Shown in pieces: positions 18,459-36,300 of a DNA stretch of 64,000 bases. The DNA lies in NCBI GenBank assembly GCA_051294905.1, contig CM119371.1, positions 28,770,001 through 28,834,000 on the forward strand. Reading direction: 5' to 3'. Position 1 is the stretch's first letter, and every line of letters starts with the position of its first letter. The DNA is from Botryllus schlosseri. Its lineage: Eukaryota. The notes beneath the pieces were generated by a model. It saw only the letters and a program-made list of their open reading frames with translations. It was not told where the DNA came from and ran no database searches. The position numbers and the translations under genes were made by a program.

Positions 18459-19224
18459 CTCATATGAAACCAGTTTCAACTTTCAAATCTCTCATTTGGA
18501 GATTTGCTACAGCGACCGCGGGTGACTCATTTTGTCCGCGTTGGTGACCCCTGTAATAGAGACATTTAAATCACGAAGCTCGAAGAACATTTTCAAGAAT
18601 TAATTTAATCTCTCGAAAATACTCTATAACAGGAGTGGGCAAACTTTTGTGCTCGCGGGCCGCATTCAACATCTGAATCCATTCGCGGGCCGCAGCACTA
18701 TATAAAATTGGGATTATAAACCAAAACTAAATATTGGTGTTTGATTATATAGTGACGACATGGAGACAATATATATGCTTATTTAGAACAAAACAAACAT
18801 TGCTATTGATGATATCGTACACGCGTCAAAAACAGTGGCGAGATTTCATAGGCTGGTGTAGCTCAATAACCAATTTGTCAAAACTATAGAGATGATTGTC
18901 AGTTGTCCCGTGTCCCCCTTATCGTCATATCACAAAACGCAACCATGAAGCTAGCAAGCCTAACGAATAGTTTGATGGCATGGAAGGTTACGACTGTTTT
19001 AAATATGAAATTCAGATTAAATACAGAGCAATAATTAGGAATTGGATTGAGACAAGCTTCGCGCCTCCCTTCAGATGCTTTCACGCCCCTCAGTTTGAGA
19101 ACCACTTCCTTAGAATTATCATGGTGTAATATACTAAGAAAAAGTTTAATCAAGTCCCTGCAGTAGTGAGGCTAAGGAACTTTGGCGCCCGCCAATCCCA
19201 GAAGACCACGTCGCCTTAATTGTC

Positions 19225-19405
19225 ACGCCTACATTGCCACATCATCCGCCCATTGCCGCACCTATAGCACACCCATTGCCACACCTATAGGACGCCCCTT
19301 GCCACATCATCAGCCACGCCCATTGCTACACCATTTGATACGTCATCAGCCACGCGCATTGCCACATCACTCGCCTATATAACGCCCATTGCTACATCAT
19401 CATGA
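19225..19405. repeat. Subterminal iterated motif cccattgc(c/t)aca (mirror copy 33590-33770)
   Basis: About 7 imperfect copies at roughly 20-40 bp spacing, close to each terminus. Confidence 0.75.
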
Positions 19406-19651
19406 TTATGCGTACTGAGCTGTTTTTGAGAACATGAATTCTCGCGTAATACACTAAACGTTGAACTAGATTTCATAACGTCACCACAGAAGAATTAGGC
19501 AACTATCTTGCTCTAGGTTCTAGGTTCGATCCCTGTAGTCGCCGCATTTCATACGATTAAGCGCTTTTCATATCTCCTAACACTTTACTCAGTCTCATTG
19601 AAATAGCCTTGTATAGTGTACGAGTTCATTTTATTTCGTAAAAAGAGCATA

Positions 19652-20158
19652 TCAATGATATCGCTGATCGTTATTGCGTCGATTCGCGTTCTGAAATCCT
19701 CCAGGTCGGTTGATGTTTCGAGGTACACCGCTTTGCTGCCATCCGACGCCGCGATCCGAGTTCTTGCGTTCGATCTGGCCGTTTTGTTTGATGTAGCGAT
19801 CACTGGCTTGTAGTATATACGATACGAGCGGAAGGTCAGGATTAGGAACAACTACGCTGGGCGAATAGATGACAAATTCATCAGCCGGATTCAGAGGTTG
19901 ATAATGCTCGATCCCATCGCGAGTATACGTAACGACCAAACCTCCTTCATGCTTCAGAGTGGCTCGATATTTCTGAATGGTCCCACTTGTGGAATGTACA
20001 AAGAGTTGATCCGAGGTCAATTCTGCTCCATTCGAGGCTTCGATACGTAATTTTGTGATGTCATTAAAAAGATACAAGTCTTTTCTATAGGGCCCCTGGG
20101 GCAGAATAGTATCTCCACGGATTGCTAGACTCATTCTTTGAAAAGAAATATCATACAT
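19652..20158 (-). CDS. Orphan ORF2, left-arm copy (~160-180 aa, start codon uncertain)
   Basis: Intronless open frame directly downstream of and overlapping the BIR ORF. AATAAA follows on the minus strand at 19630-19635. Confidence 0.6.
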   Translation of the reverse strand: MYDISFQRMSLAIRGDTILPQGPYRKDLYLFNDITKLRIEASNGAELTSDQLFVHSTSGTIQKYRATLKHEGGLVVTYTRDGIEHYQPLNPADEFVIYSPSVVVPNPDLPLVSYILQASDRYIKQNGQIERKNSDRGVGWQQSGVPRNINRPGGFQNANRRNNDQRYH

Positions 20159-20732
20159 AAGTACAACAGTCATCACGCAATTCCACTTCACCATCAAATT
20201 TAGTCAAGCCTCTTCTTATATTAGGTGTCGCATAACAGACATTACGAATATATTGCAACCCCTTGCGCTTTATGAGAAAAGGACACGTAGGATAAAACTT
20301 TGCATGTTCGAGCCAGGGGTCATCGCACGGCAACCAATTTTGAAACAGCCCTCCGCATGAGAAACACTTTAAATGATCCTTATAGCCCAAATAGAACAAT
20401 CCGCAGTCTGCGAGCTCGGCTCCGGAGGTATTGATATTATCCGGCCACCGCATAAATGTGCTTAGTCTACGAGCATAGCGTACCATGTTATAGAAAACGG
20501 GATCATTCAATGGGGAGACAGTTACATCTCTATGCTTCGCATAGCATTCATAAATCTTTTCCCCTCTGTTATTTATCATAGCTTGGTACTGTTCAATGGG
20601 ACTCATCCGAGTTTCATCTTCGCTTATTTCTATGCTACTCGTGGTACCGATGCAAGCGCAGTTGAATGTAGCGTAATTTGTAGGATCCACACTACGCTTA
20701 GTTAGAGAATCGCTTTGATCAATGTTCGACAT
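20151..20732 (-). CDS. Single-BIR IAP-like protein, 193 aa, left-arm copy
   Basis: RLSTF..WP...LADCGLFYLGYKDHLKCFSCGGLFQNW...DDPWLEHAKFYPTCPFL, with the canonical CX2CX16HX6C pattern. No RING domain; intronless. Confidence 0.93.
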   Translation of the reverse strand: MSNIDQSDSLTKRSVDPTNYATFNCACIGTTSSIEISEDETRMSPIEQYQAMINNRGEKIYECYAKHRDVTVSPLNDPVFYNMVRYARRLSTFMRWPDNINTSGAELADCGLFYLGYKDHLKCFSCGGLFQNWLPCDDPWLEHAKFYPTCPFLIKRKGLQYIRNVCYATPNIRRGLTKFDGEVELRDDCCTYV

Positions 20733-22420
20733 TGCTATCCGAATTGATATACTCTCATGATCAGTATGCTTTATATAGATATTGAGCTATGCACCATCGA
20801 AAAATGTGCTTGGTACCAATCGAATGATAGGCCCACACACCTAATTTCGTAACTAACTACATAATCCCTAGTAACGTAGTAAGACGCATAACGGAATTTA
20901 CGCAAAATCGGTATTGCTCTGCGATAATTCCGATCACTATGTTTTGATAATGACGTGCTTCCGAGAAATAAATAACATTCATTTTACGTTAGATGATACT
21001 TTTCCTTGATATTCTATCATGTGTGTTTAGGACTAATGCAACATCACTATGTTTACGACATGTCTGATTTGAACACACTAATTTTGCGTATCACACCACA
21101 AACTGCGCAAGCCTTCAAAGTTGATAAGTAAACAAGTATTTGCACTCCATCAGAATACTAAAGTAGCTTTTCGCGTATATGTACCTGTAGCTAATACTAA
21201 AGTGCTTATGATTTCAGATTGCTTCAACTTCATGACATTTTCAGTATTAAACAGAAATATAGAACTAGAATACTAACTTTTATTCGTAAATAGCTACTTC
21301 TACCTTAATTTAATGGATTTATCTGAGATCATTGCTTTACTTAATCCCTCCAAAATGTGCATTGTACAAGTACCTCAGCATCGAAACCCTCTGGCTATAA
21401 CTATCTGGCGGTATAATTGCAGCAATACTCGAGTACTAATTTAAAAGTAGCTTAGGTATCTAAATGAGCTCTGAGTCGCTGTTATCTCGCATCTGACCAT
21501 GGAGTTAACACCGGTATTACCTTCGCTCACTGATGAAAAAGATGAAAGTTATTAAAGAAAGCAGATTTGTATGAAAACTCGTTAAATAGAAGTAAAAGTA
21601 GCCTTGAAACATAACTACTTACTGAAAAATCGTTACGTAGAAGTGGGGTTAGTCTACGAACATAAACACCTACTTACTTTTAATCTCAACTTGTACTTGT
21701 ATTCGTACTTTACCTTTACACGGCGTTTTTGTATAATGTATACTAATTTTATTAAAAATAAACCAAAAGGACAAATATAATTGATCAAATTCATTCATTT
21801 ATGCAAAAAATTGAGAGTCTTGTCGTGATGGTCCGTTTCGAAATGCAAGCGGATGAACTAGACCAAAAGTTTCGAAGATGCGTTTTATAATTGCTCTAGG
21901 TGTGAAATAGACATCGCACTCTTGCGGGGAAACAACATGAATTCAGTCTTCACACCACAGAAACACAGCCGCTTGGTTAACATCACAAAACCGCAATTGA
22001 ACTCAAGATTGTCATACACGGAATCGCTGTTAACGATGTCTGACTGCGGCGTTTCGACGAGTAACGAATTCTCGTATTTAGTATTGATTGTGACACATAG
22101 TCAAAACAGCGACAGTTTTCACAACCCGGTACATACATTGAACCAACTGATGTAAGGTGAAACACTACGTTCGCAGCAAAAAAAAAGTTTGCAGGGCATG
22201 ACCACCACCAACATATAGAGTAGTGAGTGAGTAATTAAACTACATACCCCGATTTTACTATATTCCGAGATCCGGATCACGATTCAAGTCTACCTGAGAA
22301 TCCGAACTACCCTGTGAAGTTGATATATCAAGTTGTGAACCGTGAAAGGGTTGTAATCTCGGTGAAATAGTGTGCGACACATTTTTCCACAAGTCGAATG
22401 CATGTCGGTTCATACTAAGA

Positions 22421-22625
22421 CCATTAGGAATTTGCACAATGACAGGTTATTGAAACCGATGCCAAAACTCAGTATAATAGATTGATATTGATCGCGTGTA
22501 TGTTTGACATATATGCAGCATCTTGGATCGGCGGTGGAGCACTGAATGGCACTGCAGAAGTCATCTACTCTCCTAAGCTTGGACTGATCTGGGCTATTGC
22601 GCCACTGTGTTACGGGTTTAGTGTT
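22421..22625 (+). pseudogene. SLC5A7: Captured fragment of a high-affinity choline transporter (SLC5A7/CHT1-like) gene: exon end, 73-bp intron, truncated exon
   Basis: Splicing gt(22446)..ag(22518) gives PLGICTMTASWIGGGALNGTAEVIYSPKLGLIWAIAPLCYGFSV, matching the CHT1 motif TMTATWVGGGYINGTAE as recalled from memory. Confidence 0.85.
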
Positions 22626-23044
22626 CAAGTACTTTATCTTTACACGACGTTTTTTGTAAAATGAATACTAATTTTATTAAAAAAATAAAAAATAAAAAAG
22701 AGCGAAAAATTACATTATATCCCGGAACGCAACAAGAAAAGTCGTATGAATTTGTAAACTACTTGTTCATGACATAATAATAATTCTACTTGTACACTTT
22801 TTCACATTTTATAACACTTTAAGTAATACTTAACAGTTTCAGTTTTAAATAAAATACGGAATATAAACTAATCGAAAAATTCGGTAACCAATTTCGCGTA
22901 GGCTATGCATGCATACAAATGAGGAAAGTTACATCAACGCGTGTTAAAGTAGCTGTATCGAGTTATCGAATGATTTTCTCCTTACATCAAAACAACTAGA
23001 ATGTATAACTAAATTAAAAAACGTATCTAAATGAGCTCCAGGGC

Positions 23045-24600
23045 ATTGTGATTATGCTGCATACCAAATTTCATCACACATTTCATGATGGAACAACTTT
23101 AAAACTAACGCATTTCTATAGCAACTTTTGCCTAAATCTGTTTTCGGTAGCGTGTACATATACATAGTCAGATTTAATGACAGAATTATCATGCTAATAT
23201 GTGACTCCTCACCTTGAAACTTGGTACGTAGTTGTAGGACATTGTGATTATGCAGCATACCAAATTTCCTCACGCATTTCATAATGGAACAACTTTAAAA
23301 CTAACGCGGTTCTACATCGACTTTTTGCGTACATCTGTTTTGCGTGGGGGGCGTAAAGCACGTACCTATACATGTCAACTTTAACAACGGAATTACCATG
23401 CTTAACATTGAATCCCAACTCGAAATTTGATACGTAGTTATAGGACATTATGGTAATGCACCATGCTAAATTTCATCACACATCTAATGATGGAGCACCT
23501 TTAAAACTAACGCAGTCGAATACCGACTTTTACGCATATCTGTTTTGCGCGAACATAGCATATACCTATACATAGTCAATTTTAATAGCGGAATTACCGT
23601 GTTAAACATTGAATTCCCACCTTGAAAGTTGGTACGCGGTTATAGGAGATTATAACAATGCACCATACCAAATCCCATCACACATTTCATGATGGAACAA
23701 CTTTAAAACTAACGCGGCTCTACATCGACTTTTTGCGTACATCTGTTTTGTGGGAGCGTATAGCACGTAGCCTACCCATACATAGCCAACTTTAATAACG
23801 GAATTACCATGCTTAACATTGAATCCCAACTCGAAACTTGATACGTAGTTATAGAACATTATGGCAATTCACCATGCTAAATTTCATCACACATCTAATG
23901 ATGGAACACCTTTGAAACTATCGCAGTCGAATACCAACTTTTACGCATATCTGTTTTTCGTGAACATAGCATATACCCATACATAGTCAATTTTAATAAC
24001 AGAATTAGCATGCTAAACATTAAATTCTCACCTTGAACGTTGATACGCGGTTGTAGGACATAATAACAATGCACCATACCAAATTTCGTCAGACATTTCA
24101 TGATGTAACACCTTTAAAACCAACGCAGTTCTATACAGACTTTTGGCTAAATCTGTTTTTCCGTAGCGTAGCACGTACCTATACATAGTCAACTTTAATA
24201 ACGGATTTAGCATGTTAATAATCGACTCCCCACCTTGAAACTCGGTATGCAGTTGTAAGACATTATGACAATGCACCATGTCAAATTTTGTTACGCATTT
24301 CATGATTGAACAACTTTAAAACTAACGCAGTTCCATACCGACTTTTGCGAGTGCGTAGCACGTACCTATATGCATACTCAACTTTCATAACGGAATTACC
24401 GAGCTAAACATTGAATGCGCAACTTGAAGATTGGTTCACAGGTGTAGGGCAGTATGACAATGGAACACATCAAATTTCATCACACATTTCATGATGGAAC
24501 ACCTTTAAAACTAACGCAGTTCTATACCAACTTCGCGTGAATCTGTTTGCGGGAGCGTAGCACGTACCTATGCGTGATCAACTTTAGTGATGGAATTACA
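23045..24600. repeat. Tandem array of ~190-210-bp diverged units (about 8), left arm
   Basis: The motif aaatttcatcacacatttcatgatggaacaactttaaaactaacgc recurs about every 200 bp. Confidence 0.9.
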
Positions 24601-25568
24601 TATGTAATTAAGTTTCAACACTTTTACAATGATTCGTCTTGCTTCCTATAACACCCCACTCGAGAAAATGCGTCGTAGGATATAGATGAAACTAGCACCA
24701 CTCATCAAGACCGCTGAAAACAGTACATTTCAACATTTAATAGCAGTAAATTTCTAGTAAAGTACAAGACGTGATGATTTCCGAGTGAGTTAAAAAGTAA
24801 GTATTGCAGGTATAGTTTACCTGAAAACCGAATACTCTGAAATAGAAGTAGATGCAGTGTAAATAGTTAATCACTTAATTAAGTTTAGTGCAAGCAGATA
24901 AAACCTATACTTGAGTAGTACAAAATGCACGAGTACTTCGCTATCGCCTCCCTCCACGTAATAAGTGTCTACGGTTTAAGACTGCTTTTACCGATACTCG
25001 TCGGTTTCAGTTTTAGATAGAATTCGGAAACCAAATAATTTCATAAACATAAGCTAATTTAATGAATTTACTCGAATGTACTATGCCGCGCTGATAAGAT
25101 TAATTATAATATACTTATCATGTTACAGCGATTTTTCTAGCGTAGAAATCTTTAAAATGTAGAAAGCAGGCCAAATGAAGATATTCGTTGAGCTGAATAA
25201 ACATAAAAAATACTCTAGACTACTTTATCGGTACTTTACAGTTACAGTTTTAGATAAAATTTGTCCCTTTCACCTATAATTACAACTCCTCGCTATCTAA
25301 ACATGTTTAGAATATATTATTTGCGATGATACGAACCCGTGAAGTACTCAAGTTGCTTTTCGTAGGATATAGATGAAACTGACAACACTCACCAAGACCA
25401 GTGATCCACTGAAAAAAGTACATTGTAGCAGTAAAGTCCTACTAAAGTACAAGAAGTAATGATTTCCCAGTTAGTTAAAAAGTAAGTATTGAGGTATAGT
25501 TTGCTCGAAAAAGCGAAAAACTCTGAAATAGAAGTAGATGCAGTGTAAATAGGTAATCACTTCATTAA

Positions 25569-25698
25569 GTATTCGTTTAGTTGTATAGACATAAAAAACA
25601 TTCCCGCGCGCTCTTAAACAAAACACTTCCTAACCCTACCACCTAATACTAAGACGCGCGCGGGAATGTTTTTTATGTCTATACAACTAAACGAATAC
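25569..25698. repeat. Perfect 43-bp-stem hairpin at the palindrome apex
   Basis: 25569-25611 is the exact reverse complement of 25656-25698. The loop includes cctaaccctaccacctaa. Confidence 0.95.
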
Positions 25699-27019
25699 CC
25701 ATCGGCCTGCTTACTACATTTTAAATATTCTCTCCACTATTGTGTATACAACAATATACTTCTCTTAGTAAGCAATTTCTCGTGAATTCCGAAGCACATT
25801 GACACGTGTTAACTTCTATATTCGGTGATAGTATCATTTTCATGTCTGATAATGTTACTTGTCAAGGTGATACAAACGTAAGCTCAAACTACTTTAAAAT
25901 TTAAAGTCTTACCAAATTTTATCTAACACTGAAACTGTCGAGTACCGATAAAGTACTCTAAAACCTAGTCACTTTTTACGTGGAGGGAGAACATAGCGAA
26001 GTACTTGTAAATTTGCAGTACTTAAGTATAGGTTTGGCCTGCTTGCGCTATACTTAATGAAGTGATTACCTATTTACACTGCATCTACTTCTATTTCAGA
26101 GTTTTTCGCTTTTTCGAGCAAACTATACCTCAATACTTACTTTTTAACTAACTGGGAAATCATTACTTCTTGTACTTTAGTAGGACTTTACTGCTACAAT
26201 GTACTTTTTTCAGTGGATCACTGGTCTTGGTGAGTGTTGTCAGTTTCATCTATATCCTACGAAAAGCAACTTGAGTACTTCACGGGTTCGTATCATCGCA
26301 AATAATATATTCTAAACATGTTTAGATAGCGAGGAGTTGTAATTATAGGTGAAAGGGACAAATTTTATCTAAAACTGTAACTGTAAAGTACCGATAAAGT
26401 AGTCTAGAGTATTTTTTATGTTTATTCAGCTCAACGAATATCTTCATTTGGCCTGCTTTCTACATTTTAAAGATTTCTACGCTAGAAAAATCGCTGTAAC
26501 ATGATAAGTATATTATAATTAATCTTATCAGCGCGGCATAGTACATTCGAGTAAATTCATTAAATTAGCTTATGTTTATGAAATTATTTGGTTTCCGAAT
26601 TCTATCTGAAACTGAAACCGACGAGTATCGGTAAAAGCAGTCTTAAACCGTAGACACTTATTACGTGGAGGGAGGCGATAGCGAAGTACTCGTGCATTTT
26701 GTACTACTCAAGTATAGGTTTTATCTGCTTGCACTAAACTTAATTAAGTGATTAACTATTTACACTGCATCTACTTCTATTTCAGAGTATTCGGTTTTCA
26801 GGTAAACTATACCTGCAATACTTACTTTTTAACTCACTCGGAAATCATCACGTCTTGTACTTTACTAGAAATTTACTGCTATTAAATGTTGAAATGTACT
26901 GTTTTCAGCGGTCTTGATGAGTGGTGCTAGTTTCATCTATATCCTACGACGCATTTTCTCGAGTGGGGTGTTATAGGAAGCAAGACGAATCATTGTAAAA
27001 GTGTTGAAACTTAATTACA

Positions 27020-29950
27020 TATGTAATTCCATCACTAAAGTTGATCACGCATAGGTACGTGCTACGCTCCCGCAAACAGATTCACGCGAAGTTGGTATAG
27101 AACTGCGTTAGTTTTAAAGGTGTTCCATCATGAAATGTGTGATGAAATTTGATGTGTTCCATTGTCATACTGCCCTACACCTGTGAACCAATCTTCAAGT
27201 TGCGCATTCAATGTTTAGCTCGGTAATTCCGTTATGAAAGTTGAGTATGCATATAGGTACGTGCTACGCACTCGCAAAAGTCGGTATGGAACTGCGTTAG
27301 TTTTAAAGTTGTTCAATCATGAAATGCGTAACAAAATTTGACATGGTGCATTGTCATAATGTCTTACAACTGCATACCGAGTTTCAAGGTGGGGAGTCGA
27401 TTATTAACATGCTAAATCCGTTATTAAAGTTGACTATGTATAGGTACGTGCTACGCTACGGAAAAACAGATTTAGCCAAAAGTCTGTATAGAACTGCGTA
27501 GGTTTTAAAGGTGTTACATCATGAAATGTCTGAAGAAATTTGGTATGGTGCATTGTTATTATGTCCTACAACCGCGTATCAACGTTCAAGGTGAGAATTT
27601 AATGTTTAGCATGCTAATTCTGTTATTAAAATTGACTATGTATGGGTATATGCTATGTTCACGAAACACAGATATGCGTAAAAGTTGGTATTCGACTGCG
27701 ATAGTTTCAAAGGTGTTCCATCATTAGATGTGTGATGAAATTTAGCATGGTGAATTGCCATAATGTTCTATAACTACGTATCAAGTTTCGAGTTGGGGTT
27801 CAATGTTAAGCATGGTAATTCCGTTATTAAAGTTGGCTACGTGCTATACGCTCCCACAAAACAGATGTACGCAAAAAGTCGATGTAGAGCCGCGTTAGTT
27901 TTAAAGTTGTTCCATCATGAAATGTGTGATGGGATTTGGTATGGTGCATTGTTATAATCTCCTATAACCGCGTACCAACTTTCAAGGTGGGAATTCAATG
28001 TTTAACACGGTAATTCTGCTATTAAAATTGACTATGTATAGGTATATGCTATGTTCGCGCAAAACAGATATGCGTAAAAGTCGGTATTCGACTGCGTTAG
28101 TTTTAAAGGTGCTCCATCATTAGATGTGTGATGAAATTTAGCATGGTGCATTACCATAATGTCCTACAACTACGTATCAAGTTTCGAGTTGGGATTCAAT
28201 GTTAAGCATGGTAATTCCGTTGTTAAAGTTGACTATGTATAGGTACGTGCTATACGCCCCCACGCAAAACAGATGTACGCAAAAAGTCGATGTAGAACCG
28301 CGTTAGTTTTAAAGTTGTTCCATTATGAAATGCGTGAAGAAATTTGGTATGCTGCATAATCACAATGTCCTACAACTACCTACCAAGTTCCAAGGTGAGG
28401 AGTCACATATTAGCATGATAATTCTGTTATTAAATCTGACTATGTATATGTACACACTACCGAAAACAGATTTAGGCAAAAGTTGCTATAGAACTGCGTT
28501 AGTTTTAAAGTTGTTCCATCATGAAATGTGTGATGAAATTTGGTATGCAGCATAATCACAATGCCCTGGAGCTCATTCAGATACGTTTTTTAATTTAGTT
28601 ATACATTCTAGTTGTTTTGATGTAAGGAGAAAATCATTCGATAACTCGATACAGCTACTTTAACACGCGTTGATGTAACTTTCCTCATTTGTATGCATGC
28701 ATAGCCTACGCGAAATTGGTTACCGAATTTTTCGATTAGTTTATATTCCGTATTTTATTTAAAACTAAGTCGATTATTAACATGCTAAATCCGTTATTAA
28801 AGTTGACTATGTATAGGTACGTGCTACGCTACGGAAAAACAGATTTAGCCAAAAGTCTGCATAGAACTGCGTTGGTTTTAAAGGTGTTACATCATGAAAT
28901 GTCTGACGAAATTTGGTATGGTGCATTGTTATTATGTCCTACAACCGCGTATCAACGTTCAAGGTGAGAATTTAATGTTTAGCATGCTAATTCTGTTATT
29001 AAAATTGACTATGTATGGGTATATGCTATGTTCACGAAAAACAGATATGCGTAAAAGTTGGTATTCGACTGCGATAGTTTCAAAGGTGTTCCATCATTAG
29101 ATGTGTGATGAAATTTAGCATGGTGGATTGCCATAATGTTCTATAACTACGTATCAAGTTTCGAGTTGGGATTCAATGTTAAGCATGGTAATTCCGTTAT
29201 TAAAGTTGGCTATGTATGGGTAGGCTACGTGCTATACGCTCCCACAAAACAGATGTACGCAAAAAGTCGATGTAGAGCCGCGTTAGTTTTAAAGTTGTTC
29301 CATCATGAAATGTGTGATGGGATTTGGTATGGTGCATTGTTATAATCTCCTATAACCGCGTACCAACTTTCAAGGTGGGAATTCAATGTTTAACACGGTA
29401 ATTCCGCTACTAAAATTGACTATGTATAGGTATATGCTATGTTCGCGCAAAACAGATATGCGTAAAAGTCGGTATTCGACTGCGTTAGTTTTAAAGGTGC
29501 TCCATCATTAGATGTGTGATGAAATTTAGCATGGTGCATTACCATAATGTCCTACAACTACGTATCAAATTTCGAGTTGGGATTCAATGTTAAGCATGGT
29601 AATTCCGTTGTTAAAGTTGACATGTATAGGTACGTGCTATACGCCCCCCACGCAAAACAGATGTACGCAAAAAGTCGATGTAGAACCGCGTTAGTTTTAA
29701 AGTCGTTCCATTATGAAATGCGTGAGGAAATTTGGTATGCTGCATAATCACAATGTCCTACAACTACGTACCAAGTTTCAAGGTGAGGAGTCACATATTA
29801 GCATGATAATTCTGTCATTAAATCTGACTATGTATATGTACACGCTACCGAAAACAGATTTAGGCAAAAGTTGCTATAGAACTGCGTTAGTTTTAAAGTT
29901 GTTCCATCATGAAATGTGTGATGAAATTTGGTATGCAGCATAATCACAAT
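27020..29950. repeat. Right-arm ~200-bp array (about 14 units), enlarged by a 1.37-kb tandem duplication
   Basis: 27395-28767 is repeated from 28768 to ~30155. The first copy lacks 15 nt present in the second copy and in the left arm. Confidence 0.9.
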
Positions 29951-30369
29951 GCCCTGGAGCTCATTTAGATACGTTTTTTAATTTAGTTATACATTCTAGT
30001 TGTTTTGATGTAAGGAGAAAATCATTCGATAACTCGATACAGCTACTTTAACACGCGTTGATGTAACTTTCCTCATTTGTATGCATGCATAGCCTACGCG
30101 AAATTGGTTACCGAATTTTTCGATTAGTTTATATTCCGTATTTTATTTAAAACTGAAACTGTTAAGTATTACTTAAAGTGTTATAAAATGTGAAAAAGTG
30201 TACAAGTAGAAATATTATTATGTCATGAACAAGTAGTTTACAAATTCATACGTTTTTTCTTGTTGCGTTCCGGGATATAATGTAATTTTTCGCTCTTTTT
30301 TATTTTTTATTTTTTTAATAAAATTAGTATTCATTTTACAAAAAACGTCGTGTAAAGATAAAGTACTTG

Positions 30370-30574
30370 AACACTAAACCCGTAACACAGTGGCGCAATA
30401 GCCCAGATCAGTCCAAGCTTAGGAGAGTAGATGACTTCTGCAGTGCCATTCAGTGCTCCACCGCCGATCCAAGATGCTGCATATATGTCAAACATACACG
30501 CGATCAATATCAATCTATTATACTGAGTTTTGGCATCGGTTTCAATAACCTGTCATTGTGCAAATTCCTAATGG
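30370..30574 (-). pseudogene. SLC5A7: Mirror copy of the SLC5A7-like fragment
   Basis: Reverse complement of 22421-22625. Confidence 0.85.
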
Positions 30575-32217
30575 TCTTAGTATGAACCGACATGCATTCG
30601 ACTTGTGGAAAAATGTGTCGCACACTATTTCACCGAGATTACAACCCTTTCACGGTTCACAACTTGATATATCAACTTCACAGGGTAGTTCGGATTCTCA
30701 GGTAGACTTGAATCGTGATCCGGATCTCGGAATATAGTAAAATCGGGGTATGTAGTTTAATTACTCACTCACTACTCTATATGTTGGTGGTGGTCATACC
30801 CTGCAAACTTTTTTTTTGCTGCGAACGTAGTGTTTCACCTTACATCAGTTGGTTCAATGTATGTACCGGGTTGTGAAAACTGTCGCTGTTTTGACTATGT
30901 GTCACAATCAATACTAAATACGAGAATTCGTTACTCGTCGAAACGCCGCAGTCAGACATCGTTAACAGCGATTCCGTGTATGACAATCTTGAGTTCAATT
31001 GCGGTTTTGTGATGTTAACCAAGCGGCTGTGTTTCTGTGGTGTGAAGACTGAATTCATGTTGTTTCCCCGCAAGAGTGCGATGTCTATTTCACACCTAGA
31101 GCAATTATAAAACGCATCTTCGAAACTTTTGATCTAGTTCATCCGCTTGCATTTCGAAACGGACCATCACGACAAGACTCTCAATTTTTTGCATAAATGA
31201 ATGAATTTGATCAATTATATTTGTCCTTTTGGTTTATTTGTAATAAAATTAGTATACATTATACAAAAACGCCGTGTAAAGGTAAAGTACGAATACAAGT
31301 ACAAGTTGAGATTAAAAGTAAGTAGGTGTTTATGTTCGTAGACTAACCCCACTTCTACGTAACGATTTTTCAGTAAGTAGTTATGTTTCAAGGCTACTTT
31401 TACTTCTATTTAACGAGTTTTCATACAAATCTGCTTTCTTTAATAACTTTCATCTTTTTCATCAGTGAGCGAAGGTAATACCGGTGTTAACTCCATGGTC
31501 AGATGCGAGATAACAGCGACTCAGAGCTCATTTAGATACCTAAGCTACTTTTAAATTAGTACTCGAGTATTGCTGCAATTATACCGCCAGATAGTTATAG
31601 CCAGAGGGTTTCGATGCTGAGGTACTTGTACAATGCACATTTTGGAGAGATTAAGTAAAGCAATGCTCTCAGATAAATCCATTAAATTAAGGTAGAAGTA
31701 GCTATTTACGAATAAAAGTTAGTATTCTAGTTCTATATTTCTGTTTAATACTGAAAATGTCATGAAGTTGAAGCAATCTGAAATCATAAGCACTTTAGTA
31801 TTAGCTACAGGTACATATACGCGAAAAGCTACTTTAGTATTCTGATGGAGTGCAAATACTTGTTTACTTATCAACTTTGAAGGCTTGCGCAGTTTGTGGT
31901 GTGATACGCAAAATTAGTGTGTTCAAATCAGACATGTCGTAAACATAGTGATGTTGCATTAGTCCTAAACACACATGATAGAATATCAAGGAAAAGTATC
32001 ATCTAACGTATAATGAATGTTATTTATTTCTCGGAAGCACGTCATTATCAAAACATAGTGATCGGAATTATCGCAGAGCAATACCGATTTTGCGTAAATT
32101 CCGTTATGCGTCTTACTACGTTACTAGGGATTATGTAGTTAGTTACGAAATTAGGTGTGTGGGCCTATCATTCGATTGGTACCAAGCACATTTTTCGATG
32201 GTGCATAGCTCAATATC

Positions 32218-32253
32218 TATATAAAGCATACTGATCATGAGAGTATATCAATT
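32218..32253 (+). promoter_or_regulatory. TATA box plus Inr-like motif upstream of the BIR ORF (mirror 20742-20777)
   Basis: tatataaa at 32218-32225, tcaatt 30 nt later at 32248-32253, ATG at 32263. Confidence 0.55.
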
Positions 32254-32262
32254 CGGATAGCA

Positions 32263-32844
32263 ATGTCGAACATTGATCAAAGCGATTCTCTAACTAAGCG
32301 TAGTGTGGATCCTACAAATTACGCTACATTCAACTGCGCTTGCATCGGTACCACGAGTAGCATAGAAATAAGCGAAGATGAAACTCGGATGAGTCCCATT
32401 GAACAGTACCAAGCTATGATAAATAACAGAGGGGAAAAGATTTATGAATGCTATGCGAAGCATGGAGATGTAACTGTCTCCCCATTGAATGATCCCGTTT
32501 TCTATAACATGGTACGCTATGCTCGTAGACTAAGCACATTTATGCGGTGGCCGGATAATATCAATACCTCCGGAGCCGAGCTCGCAGACTGCGGATTGTT
32601 CTATTTGGGCTATAAGGATCATTTAAAGTGTTTCTCATGCGGAGGGCTGTTTCAAAATTGGTTGCCGTGCGATGACCCCTGGCTCGAACATGCAAAGTTT
32701 TATCCTACGTGTCCTTTTCTCATAAAGCGCAAGGGGTTGCAATATATTCGTAATGTCTGTTATGCGACACCTAATATAAGAAGAGGCTTGACTAAATTTG
32801 ATGGTGAAGTGGAATTGCGTGATGACTGTTGTACTTATGTATGA
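32263..32844 (+). CDS. Single-BIR IAP-like protein, 193 aa, right-arm copy
   Basis: Same protein as the left copy except HGDV versus HRDV. Confidence 0.93.
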   Translation: MSNIDQSDSLTKRSVDPTNYATFNCACIGTTSSIEISEDETRMSPIEQYQAMINNRGEKIYECYAKHGDVTVSPLNDPVFYNMVRYARRLSTFMRWPDNINTSGAELADCGLFYLGYKDHLKCFSCGGLFQNWLPCDDPWLEHAKFYPTCPFLIKRKGLQYIRNVCYATPNIRRGLTKFDGEVELRDDCCTYV

Positions 32845-33343
32845 TATTTCTTTTCAAAGAATGAGTCTAGCAATCCGTGGAGATACTATTCTGCCCCAGG
32901 GGCCCTATAGAAAAGACTTGTATCTTTTTAATGACATCACAAAATTACGTATCGAAGCCTCGAATGGAGCAGAATTGACCTCGGATCAAATCTTTGTACA
33001 TTCCACAAGTGGGACCATTCAGAAATATCGAGCCACTCTGAAGCATGAAGGAGGTTTGGTCGTTACGTATACTCGCGATGGGATCGAGCATTATCAACCT
33101 CTGAATCCGGCTGATGAATTTGTCATCTATTCGCCCAGCGTAGTTGTTCCTAATCCTGACCTTCCGCTCGTATCGTATATACTACAAGCCAGTGATCGCT
33201 ACATCAAACAAAACGGCCAGATCGAACGCAAGAACTCGGATCGCGGCGTCGGATGGCAGCAAAGCGGTGTACCTCGAAACATCAACCGACCTGGAGGATT
33301 TCAGAACGCGAATCGACGCAATAACGATCAGCGATATCATTGA
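32837..33343 (+). CDS. Orphan ORF2, right-arm copy (possible starts ATG 32801, 32837 or 32861)
   Basis: Overlaps the BIR stop (ATGTATGA at 32837-32844). AATAAA at 33360-33365. Differs from the left copy at DQIFV versus DQLFV. Confidence 0.6.
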   Translation: MYDISFQRMSLAIRGDTILPQGPYRKDLYLFNDITKLRIEASNGAELTSDQIFVHSTSGTIQKYRATLKHEGGLVVTYTRDGIEHYQPLNPADEFVIYSPSVVVPNPDLPLVSYILQASDRYIKQNGQIERKNSDRGVGWQQSGVPRNINRPGGFQNANRRNNDQRYH

Positions 33344-36300
33344 TATGCTCTTTTTACGAAATAAAATGAACTCGTACACTATACAAGGCTATTTCAATGA
33401 GACTGAGTAAAGTGTTAGGAGATATGAAAAGCGCTTAATCGTATGAAATGCGGCGACTACAGGGATCGAACCTAGAACCTAGAGCAAGATAGTTGCCTAA
33501 TTCTTCTGTGGTGACGTTATGAAATCTAGTTCAACGTTTAGTGTATTACGCGAGAATTCATGTTCTCAAAAACAGCTCAGTACGCATAATCATGATGATG
33601 TAGCAATGGGCGTTATATAGGCGAGTGATGTGGCAATGCGCGTGGCTGATGACGTATCAAATGATGTAGCAATGGGCGTGGCTGATGATGTGGCAAGGGG
33701 CGTCCTATAGGTGTGGCAATGGGTGTGCTATAGGTGCGGCAATGGGCGGATGATGTGGCAATGTAGGCGTGACAATTAAGGCGACGTGGTCTTCTGGGAT
33801 TGGCGGGCGCCAAAGTTCCTTAGCCTCACTACTCCCTGCATTAATTCGATTTTTGGTACGCATTTTATCAATATTTTAATAAGTTTCTTTAGACTCTCGC
33901 GGGCCGCACAGAACGGTGTTGCGGGCCGTAGTTTGCCCACCCCTGCTCTATAATCTATCTTGGTTTACCTTACGAAATACTTTTGAGTCACTTTCGAGTA
34001 GCCTACGCTCCCCACCCTATTAGGGAGTTTGGGGTGCGGCAGTTAAAGACCTGGTAAGAATGCAAATCGTTGGGTGCGATAAATCATCCCCTATAAGGTT
34101 GGGCAATGGGTACATTATGAATTAACAAGCGAATGACGCATGATGTAGAAAGTTGATATCTCATTAGGCCTTTTCATCGCAATCCATATATTGTCTGCCA
34201 ATATATCTTCTAAAATTATGGTCCTAAGAAACAAAATGAATGTAATCGTGAGTAATCGTGATTCCTTTTCCAATGTAATCGTAATCGTAATCGACTGCTT
34301 CCTGATTTTGCTGTAATCGTAATCGCAATCGATTACATTCATGAAGTAATCACCCCATGTCTATGGTTCACACACAGAGAACGAACGTGAACCTCACGTT
34401 CACACCATCCCTAATAGTTATATAACGTGTATTCAAACTTTCTTCGCGTTTCGCGCGATTTATTGCCACATACTATCTTGATATCAGCATGGGTAGCCAT
34501 AGGCTACTAGCCTAGTCTTCCCCCAATGAAAATACGCATAATTTATAGGGATAGGCATTTCGGCATCCGGCATTACCACGTCACGACATACTAAGACGTT
34601 GACAACGACGTTTCAGCCAACATGCGGCTCTTCGAAATGTACTGCGAAAAAGCTCGGCGGCGAGGGAACCTTGGCTGGAAAGGACCGAGTCATGTTGGCC
34701 GAAACCGATATATAATATTGAATTTTCCCTTGTCCATAGACGCTTGAATGGCTGGCGCCTAATGTTCTTGTCCTGGCAATCTGAGCCCCACATTATAATT
34801 GCCACCCATAGAGATAAATCATCCACTCCGTGAAGAAATATAACTTCTTAGTCAACACCACAGCAGTATTATTATAAAGTGGATTTTAGCCAACGCAAGA
34901 GGATTCCCCGTAAAAATCTAGAATTAGCAGTTTCTAGTCCGGTGATGTAACTCTTTTCTGGATCCCAAATTAATAATGCTCTATTACACTCGAAGAGTTT
35001 TCGGGTGCCTCTTTTCAAGAGTTATCGGTACACTAATTACCATTTAGGTGAGAACCTCTCCTGTGCACAGAACTCTCATGATGACATGCACAGCACACGA
35101 GATGTCGATTATCGAGACCGATACTTGGAACTTTACAGATTATCGATATCGGCCTATGATGGCTGATATCGCGGCCGATATTTCATGTTAAAAAAAATCA
35201 AAAACTAAACTTGCAGGTCAAACCGCTGAGAATACATGCTGAGCTTCCTGCATTACAACTTACTTCTACTGGACTGGGCTGCATTTCTGCATCACGTTTT
35301 GAATTTTTGGGTAGCCTAAATTTCAATGAATGTGCAAAATTCAGCAACAATTCTTTCCGATTTCAGTTTTGCTTGCTTGTTGTATGCATACAGCTTTTTG
35401 TGGCATGTACAAGTGCCATCTTGCCCAATATATAATATTTTTGGAGGAAATGGTTCTCTACTCCTTCCATAATATCGGCCTATCGGTTATCGGCGATGTG
35501 AGTGTGTCGATAATAGGTATCGGTATCGGCCTGCAAAATCAATATCGGTCGACCTCTATTGCTCACTGTTATTAAGCCCATTTGCATGGCCGATTGGGTC
35601 AGCTTCGAAGCTGACTCGTCAATCCGACTCCCTCATTTTCGAAAAAGGGAAAAAGGCAAATTGCTACCACCATCTTGAGCCAAATCCGTTTCGCGCAGAC
35701 TGTGAGGCGGCTTGAGCAATAGCAGTGCAATAGCAGAGCAATAGCTCCCGACTCTACCATTTCTACCAACATTTATAAAAATAAAATCACGAACTCGGCA
35801 CCCATCTGGTTGAAAAGAAGAGCCATATCATTGCATGATACTGATGTTCCAACGATATGCACGTGGTCTTATTTGCTAAGCGTGACGGATTATGAAGCGA
35901 GTATAGCAAATTAGCAAACCATATAACTTGCACAGCTCAGCATCAGGGAAATACGCAAGATGTGCTACGTTATTCTGGAAATGCGAAAACTATTCGGATT
36001 ATTGAACTTGCGTAGCATAATCCCCTAGCTTAATCCCAGACGGCTGTATCACTAGATTGGTTATCTATAGTATCACTTGAGCTGTGACAACTTTTGCCTA
36101 TGAAATTGTAAACTCAATCGAATTTTCAGCACTTCGGTCAGCCGTCACATGACGTCACTCCAACACGACTTAGCTCCGAGACGACCTCACCATGTAAATA
36201 TGGGCTTATTTGGGTTTGCCAAATTTTGGAAATCTGAAAAGTGGACACTTTTTCAAATTTTTCAGACTTGCAATCCCGAATAAATGGTAAAAATGTTTCC

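Follow-up and report, generated by a model that had tools for sequence, protein, structure and literature searches.

Both ends of a palindromic, non-autonomous element in Botryllus schlosseri carry what is probably the terminal IAP module of a Maverick family

A stretch of 64,000 nucleotides of Botryllus schlosseri DNA (assembly GCA_051294905.1, contig CM119371.1, positions 28,770,001 to 28,834,000 of the forward strand; hereafter the window) contains a near-perfect palindrome of 14,672 bp at 19162-33833. Close to each of its ends lies a small cassette of two genes, ORF1, which encodes an inhibitor of apoptosis (IAP) protein with a single baculovirus IAP repeat (BIR) domain, and ORF2, which encodes an orphan protein. 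The explanation that best joins all of the evidence, and that we regard as probable, is that the cassette is the right-terminal module of a Maverick family, and that the window element is a non-autonomous palindrome with two Maverick right ends, which was integrated in trans as a unit.

The parent family was recovered by extending three cassette copies found elsewhere in the genome, which yielded an element of ~17 kb, with 13.8 kb in common at 96-97%. A dense gene array runs through this element on the strand opposite the cassette, which is the sole module opposite in strand to all other genes. The encoded proteins include an integrase (PF00665 (rve), E 4.9e-13, 49.6 bits with a cut-off of 32.6) with a chromodomain (PF00385, E 5.8e-8), and an A32/FtsK-type packaging ATPase (PF04665 (Pox_A32), E 2.8e-9, 37.3 bits with a cut-off of 22.8). 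A further open reading frame (ORF) of 1292 aa has 472 relatives at E<=1e-3, and PF03175 (pPolB) was present in 101 of the 120 that were listed; it is uninterrupted in one copy and split or shorter in two others, and a direct Pfam scan gave a weak Pox_F12L match alone (E 0.003). Copy A of this family, which was read at both ends, has the termini AGTAGTGAGG...CCTCACTACT and a clean 6-bp target-site duplication (TSD). The termini of the family take the form 5'-AGTAGT..ACTACT-3', with the AGTAGT start present in 5/5 elements read, and all five are flanked by 6-bp TSDs: GAAGCT for copy A, ACCCTG for the gene-less palindrome F, AGCATT and AATATT for the IAP palindromes G1 and G2, and CCCTGC for the window element.

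Judged by these sequences, the parent would be an endogenous Maverick/Polinton (adintovirus-like) family, and the IAP-ORF2 cassette its outward-pointing right-terminal accessory module. Read from the inside outward, the module consists of a divergent intergenic region, a core promoter with TATA and initiator-like (Inr-like) motifs, the BIR-only IAP, a 16-nt spacer, ORF2, AATAAA, and ~470 bp with six GCAATGGGCG repeats and the AGTAGT terminus. A first reading of the window, made from its letters alone (the sequence-only reading), had called the cassette virus-like, which agrees with this assignment.

The window element shares little else with its parent. Its match to the full-length Maverick is limited to the outermost 1673 bp of each side (19162-20834 and 32161-33833), at 93% identity, and the 11.3 kb between them are non-coding. 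Between the outer arms (19162-24227 and 28768-33833), 19 of 5066 positions are mismatched, and the arms are 99.6% complementary over 5 kb. An inner pair of arms (23780-25572 and 26050-27842) flanks a centre of 477 nt, and the number of 202/411-bp tandem repeats is unequal between the two sides of the palindrome. The ORFs of at least 80 aa inside 19162-33833 are the two IAPs, the two ORF2s and one 91-aa frame within the tandem repeats; inspection of these revealed no polymerase or integrase gene. The element is non-autonomous, as the sequence-only reading had proposed. Each of its ends carries six GCAATGGGCG-type repeats, which account for 12 of the 13 matches in the window, where 2.3 would be expected by chance. 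The related string AATGGGCG adjoins the termini of two other families as well. The features of the element are as follows.

19162-33833, no strand: whole palindromic non-autonomous Maverick derivative, 14,672 bp, termini 5'-AGTAGTGAGG...CCTCACTACT-3'
19156-19161, no strand: TSD CCCTGC, left copy, in the 6-bp reading
19162-20834, minus strand: left arm, 1673 bp of Maverick right end (terminus, subterminal repeats, ORF2, ORF1, core promoter), 93% identity to full-length copy A at 19891-21498
19247-19392, minus strand: six subterminal GCAATGGGCG-type repeats, left end
19652-20134, minus strand: ORF2, left copy, 160 aa
20151-20732, minus strand: ORF1, single-BIR IAP, left copy, 193 aa, R at residue 68
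20835-32160, no strand: non-coding interior, common to an abundant palindromic family, with 202/411-bp tandem repeats at 23060-24599 and 27056-29935
32161-33833, plus strand: right arm, 1673 bp of Maverick right end; the homology of 28/28 other copies begins exactly at 32161
32218-32254, plus strand: core-promoter-like stretch, TATATAAAG at 32218-32226 and ATCAATTC at 32247-32254
32263-32844, plus strand: ORF1, BIR-only IAP, 193 aa, BIR at residues 89-153, no RING
32861-33343, plus strand: ORF2, orphan protein predicted to be all-beta, 160 aa, disordered basic tail at residues 128-160
33360-33365, plus strand: AATAAA, 468 bp before the terminus at 33833
33603-33748, plus strand: six subterminal GCAATGGGCG-type repeats, right end
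33834-33839, no strand: TSD CCCTGC, right copy

The sequence-only reading had described a compact, intronless cassette at 32218-33365 that is mirrored and points outward in both arms, with both copies open, one residue apart in each ORF, and ending about 470 bp from each terminus. All of these features are found where it placed them: the minus strand carries the mirror copy at 19630-20777, G/R in ORF1 and I/L in ORF2 distinguish the arms, and 468 bp were measured after AATAAA. The promoter-like letters are kept unchanged at 32219-32227, which overlaps the TATA box, in 22/30 copies, and at 32245-32254, which contains ATCAATTC, in 27/30, while the poly(A)-signal place at 33361-33366 is unchanged in 28/30. 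A bacterial promoter/terminator scan was set aside as meaningless for a eukaryote. A tRNA-like T-arm string near 33461, between ORF2 and the terminus, led nowhere, and a tRNA scan of the window found none.

A Pfam scan assigned the BIR domain of ORF1 to PF00653 (E 1.6e-18, 67.4 bits with a cut-off of 22.9), the family against which the sequence-only reading had proposed to check it. The domain aligns end to end over 83 residues with a cIAP1/XIAP BIR3 chimera (E 1.3e-25), with the CCHC zinc ligands present. The same scan detected no RING family in ORF1 at E<=1, and the protein stops 40 residues past the BIR. Searches of the ESM Atlas with ORF1 returned generic BIR clusters only, and a word-based homologue search gave a single near-identical match for each of the two ORFs.

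One claim of the sequence-only reading about the cassette has to be revised, namely that ORF2 overlaps ORF1. This overlap of 44 nt is a product of choosing the longest ORF, which starts at the ATG at 32801. Since each of its four distant relatives starts with the methionine that matches 32861, ORF2 most likely spans 32861-33343 (160 aa), starting 16 nt past the stop of ORF1 without overlap. An intron fusing ORF1 to ORF2 was also considered; the GT..AG candidates checked by eye restore no frame, and the separate start at 32861 was preferred.

ORF2 itself matched no Pfam family, and only 5 relatives were found among 1.84 billion representative proteins, all of them unnamed singletons. A confident AlphaFold model built on a six-sequence alignment (predicted local distance difference test score (pLDDT) 79.5) predicts an all-beta fold for residues 1-127, followed by a disordered basic tail. 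With this model, Foldseek found nothing at E<=1e-3 in PDB and BFVD, and VIA-align gave a best Z of 4.0 among 48,161 chains, with no convincing structural relative. The ESM Atlas held no usable match, 14 pattern matches in viral contigs yielded 0 confirmed relatives, and no relative of ORF2 was present in the IAP palindromes G1 and G2 or in G3. That ORF2 acts as a partner of the IAP is a guess.

The cassette is widespread and appears to be maintained as protein-coding sequence. A search of the 495.5-Mb assembly with the 1148-bp cassette gave 290 first-look candidates. Each of the 40 scored was full-length, with 96-100% identity, and they lay on many contigs; the copy number is thus at least 40 full-length copies, 290 being the number of first-look candidates. 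The arrangement is far beyond chance. Reading frames were intact in 27/30 fetched copies for ORF1 and in 30/30 for ORF2. The pairwise ratio of nonsynonymous to synonymous substitution rates (dN/dS) was 0.21 across 26 copies of ORF1 and 0.18 across 29 copies of ORF2; dS was ~0.08-0.09. By region, it was 0.094 in residues 76-170 of ORF1, which include the BIR, and 0.39 in the N-terminus of ORF1, and it was 0.146 in residues 1-127 of ORF2 and 0.41 in its tail. To judge from these ratios, both ORFs are under purifying selection. The most distant pairs had a dN/dS of 0.15 and the closest pairs 0.42, the pattern expected from selection on propagating lineages that relaxes after insertion. Pairwise divergence among copies is 2-5% in the cassette and 15-29% in the surrounding element DNA, a contrast of which poorer flank alignment may explain part.

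These copies also tie the cassette to the element end. In 28/28 other fetched copies, similarity to the window starts at exactly 32161 and continues through to the terminus, and in 22/28 another conserved sequence, missing from the window element, lies upstream of this position. A tree of 30 copies places the two window cassettes together on a tight twig, with one full-length copy next to them. Four of the 30 (L005, L016, L025 and L030) have only ~125 bp upstream in common with the main family and hold window 33271-33418 a second time, in part, ~500 bp before the cassette; they form a further, rearranged subfamily. The sequence-only reading had named two outcomes that would speak against it, neutral decay across copies and a BIR that is a recent retrocopy confined to this insertion. 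The first is refuted by a dN/dS well below 1 and the second by the many genomic copies. A processed retrocopy of a host IAP was rejected on further grounds, as the promoter region from 32161 and ~470 bp downstream to the terminus are present in 28/28 other copies, and a second gene follows ORF1.

The alternative that survives best is that the ORFs are host IAP paralogues under host-level selection, a domesticated family for which the elements are a mere vehicle. A dN/dS well under 1 and the hundreds of BIR ORFs in the genome would fit this view, and IAP expansions in invertebrates have been described as adaptive in the part of a recent survey available to us (PMC13159474). However, constraint is weaker in the closest copies (0.42 against 0.15), ORF1 RNA was near nil in the runs examined, and the cassette is always attached to an element terminus. 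We therefore consider this alternative unlikely.

The interior of the window element has a history apart from the cassette. A query spanning the junction between the two gave 1912 first-look candidates, and among the 40 scored, the junction was crossed by the two window arms only. The remaining scored interior matches end at the junction and typically form inverted pairs, which have 99-100% identity and occur on at least seven contigs. In all six of the inverted pairs that were fetched, both arms run past the junction into different, mutually shared sequence. A standard copy (F; G000:C9:1369606-1380081) proved to be a palindrome of 10,476 bp with the termini AGTAGTAAGGG, the TSD ACCCTG and no ORF of more than 91 aa. 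Its ends have 91-93% identity to the Maverick right end, and each keeps the final 40 codons of ORF2. Given the palindromic interior pairs and copy F with its Maverick right ends, the genome holds a large family of palindromic "two-right-ends" Maverick derivatives. Two parts of the standard gene-less derivative gave 1912 and 936 first-look candidates, and it may fill a percent or more of the genome.

Compared with this standard form, the window copy would be a variant that exchanged both ends, at mirror-image breakpoints, for a longer stretch of right end with the entire cassette on it. This differs from the view of the sequence-only reading, in which the element had kept its cargo gene: the interior family is normally cassette-free. 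One could instead suppose that two truncated Maverick ends and a foldback element were joined by nested insertions or local rearrangement and never moved as one unit, as the composite was met only once among the scored matches. Yet the two junctions are exact mirror images, and independent events would not yield identical breakpoints. Moreover, a single shared 6-bp duplication lies outside, and an uninterrupted paralogue has the two flanks joined directly. Such a nested origin is very unlikely.

The flanks themselves record the insertion. In another copy of the flanking repeat, next to element A, they run together without a break, and this copy represents the equivalent of an empty site; in two runs, the read or contig parts preceding 33834 resemble the left flank of the window, that is, the uninterrupted flanking repeat. 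The window element integrated as one unit, with the TSD CCCTGC. The letters of the flanks also allow an 8-bp duplication, TCCCTGCA, but the 6-bp reading was adopted because 4/4 related elements have unambiguous 6-bp duplications. The window element and copy A sit ~110 bp apart in copies of the same flanking repeat (window 18622-19161 and 33834-33952), and this repeat may be a preferred target of the chromodomain integrase. Further out, window 34192-34400 was covered very deeply by both reads and contigs in every organism-A run, with many 'goes back 57-73' joints, which indicates a short tandem repeat in the flank whose copy number varies and which has no relation to the element.

Two further alternatives are both highly improbable. 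Library artefacts can generate palindromes of this kind, and arms that are 99.6% complementary over 5 kb might suggest that a chimeric fold-back long read had given a false palindrome in the assembly; against this, the arms differ at 19 sites and in the number of tandem repeats, the flanks are of unique order with a 6-bp duplication, inverted pairs of the family occur on at least seven contigs, and the copy read end to end has a 6-bp duplication of its own. A foldback-type cut-and-paste transposon (hAT/P-like, with the 8-bp duplication TCCCTGCA) that captured a host IAP would account for the 8-bp reading of the flanks and for long inverted arms with tandem and subterminal short repeats, but four related elements with the same AGTAGT termini have unambiguous 6-bp duplications, the terminal 1673 bp are 93% identical to the end of a 17-kb element encoding a polymerase, an integrase and a packaging ATPase, and no transposase was found, whereas the autonomous relative encodes an integrase and PolB.

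If the window element is indeed a palindrome with two Maverick right ends, its origin can be pictured as follows. During protein-primed replication, a displaced single strand would fold back at the internal palindrome, and the folded 3' end would be filled in to the terminus, leaving symmetric ends; alternatively, these could have arisen by gene conversion from arm to arm. The integrase of autonomous Maverick copies, acting in trans, would then have inserted the whole element, with the six GCAATGGGCG repeats per end as putative binding sites for the replication or integration machinery. The doubled gene dose would be a by-product of the symmetry of the palindrome; the sequence-only reading had seen in it a dose doubled by the element, of which we found no sign of benefit. 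The BIR3-like domain could shield an infected or replicating cell from apoptosis by binding the IAP-binding motifs (IBM-type) of caspases or IAP antagonists.

Several observations weigh against this account. The scoring of 40 cassette copies turned up no further palindrome with the cassette, so that the composite window element may be a single accident. The fold-back fill-in step is hypothetical at this locus, and the anti-apoptotic role suggested for ORF1 would have to be exerted by a protein without a RING. For the parent family, the evidence for a double-jelly-roll capsid protein is weak (DJR-like_dom, E 0.003, 17.3 bits, under the cut-off of 27), the 425-aa ORF at the equivalent position in another copy had no Pfam match, and no protease family was detected at E<=0.01 in the 13 ORFs scanned.

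Transcription also counts against it. ORF1 RNA reached a depth of 0-0.85 in a bulk RNA-seq run, of which ~6% was read, and of 0-0.77 in a single-cell run. A peak of RNA was present at 33052-33393, but its reads mostly continue into unlike sequence (507/513 and 588/829), and at the 8 diagnostic positions checked they carry the letters of other family copies, none of them window-specific. As the peak reads carry these letters, some RNA near the 3' end of ORF2 derives from other family members or fragments, and some transcript elsewhere contains only a ~200-nt piece of ORF2. Reads in this region have loose ends at 33110 and 33304. The run index listed no RNA data set for the cassette. The window copy looks silent in the sampled runs. 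An absence of transcripts, which the sequence-only reading had named as a further refutation, thus applies in part: ORF1 RNA is almost absent, while the reads near the 3' end of ORF2 come from other copies. A candidate for a second palindrome with the cassette, the pair L015/L019 on contig 4, was rejected, as its members are just 96.2% alike.

BIR genes are abundant in this genome beyond the cassette family. A whole-genome Pfam search for BIR gave 664 first-look candidates, and 150/150 scored exceeded the cut-off; the cassette family is missing from these 150 because all of them outscore the cassette BIR. Most of the scored BIRs belong to intronless frames with lengths of 581-583, 407, 394 and 382 aa, each found repeatedly across many loci. 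Read from the table of matches, ~28 inverted BIR pairs face outward at 2.7-15.5 kb and 6 face inward at 1-2 kb. Two such pairs were fetched, at G000:C12:21764001-21782000 (392-aa) and G000:C11:11037001-11054000 (382-aa), and both are palindromes with Maverick-type ends (2/2), AGTAGTA termini and 6-bp TSDs (AGCATT and AATATT). Their arms are 6.6 and 7.0 kb long with 99.5% and 99.9% identity, the elements measure ~14.7 and 15.3 kb, and each arm carries a three-BIR, RING-less ORF. In DNA, both are unrelated to the window element. Of the BIRs in the G1 and G3 IAPs, the third, C-terminal one matches the cassette BIR best, at just 33-38% identity.

Another setting for IAP genes was seen at G000:C10:14427001-14446000, a dense one-strand array of intronless ORFs. 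These encode a leucine-rich repeat (LRR) protein, an ISXO2-like DDE transposase, a 564-aa IAP with three BIRs and a RING, a ubiquitin-conjugating E2 and a 938-aa zinc-knuckle protein. Frames for IAPs like this one, 581-583 aa long, occur at 20 or more loci. The array may be another large mobile or viral element.

The sequence-only reading had suggested that such elements are a route for the expansion of the IAP family in the host. This part of it is plausible, as it fits the 664 first-look BIR candidates, many in inverted pairs, and the Maverick-type ends of 2/2 tested pairs. Only tentatively, and with a little less than even confidence, we extend it to most of the several hundred BIR/IAP ORFs in the genome, which would ride on Maverick-type elements, many of them on palindromic derivatives with two identical ends made by fold-back copying and spread by integrase in trans. 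If this were true, virus-like Mavericks, and not retrotransposition or tandem duplication, would be a main engine of invertebrate-style 'IAP expansion', and some catalogued host IAPs would be genes of endogenous viruses and their dependent offshoots. Set beside the 664 first-look candidates, the two Maverick-ended pairs suggest another source of intronless IAPs that can be tested genome-wide.

Beyond the IAP genes, the window points to three properties of these elements. An IAP and an orphan partner would form a constrained terminal module of an active-looking Maverick family. A mirror-duplicated Maverick end would by itself suffice for integration, and would thereby define palindromic non-autonomous Mavericks as a large class, with 1912 first-look candidates in a single family. 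Finally, palindromic Maverick vehicles could acquire the IAP module. No description of palindromic or foldback Maverick derivatives, or of IAP expansion driven by Mavericks, was found in the literature covered, which left aside subscription journals and supplements.

Formal parallels in architecture are the Drosophila Foldback (FB) and Tetris elements, which likewise have long inverted arms, internal tandem repeats, little or no coding sequence and a high copy number. FB elements make a 9-bp target duplication, whereas the window element has Maverick-type termini and a 6-bp duplication, and its arms end in sequence derived from a Maverick end. For the proposed origin of the symmetric ends, a precedent exists in the repair of inverted terminal repeats (ITRs) and in the defective inverted-duplication genomes of adenoviruses, where one end of a protein-primed linear genome is copied onto the other via an intramolecular duplex. 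Here the product is integrated in a chromosome and the duplicated end is 1.7 kb long with two genes, and the mechanism would be the same only by analogy. As for the gene, the IAPs of baculoviruses, entomopoxviruses and iridoviruses are also viral BIR proteins with a compact promoter of their own and a presumed block of apoptosis. They usually have two BIRs and a RING; set against this general picture, ORF1 stands out by a lone BIR3-like domain without any RING.

That Mavericks can carry an IAP is already known, though it has appeared in print only in passing. In a 2026 survey of 2,843 metazoan IAPs, intronless dispersed copies were put down to retrotransposition, and the parts available to us do not contain the words "Maverick" or "Polinton" (PMC13159474). 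IAP homologues are present in adintoviruses, the animal Mavericks/Polintons, according to the sections consulted of Starrett et al. (2021, PMC8502044), and leafhopper adintoviruses 1-8 have them as well, according to the accessible portion of a preprint (bioRxiv 10.64898/2026.07.28.741253). As far as these excerpts go, the likeness lies in a BIR accessory gene on an element with PolB, a retrovirus-like integrase, a packaging ATPase and inverted ends. On the same partial basis, the Botryllus module would differ in its BIR-only form of 193 aa, in standing with the orphan ORF2 at the extreme end of the element, in its 40 or more endogenous copies, and in its transfer to a non-autonomous palindrome.

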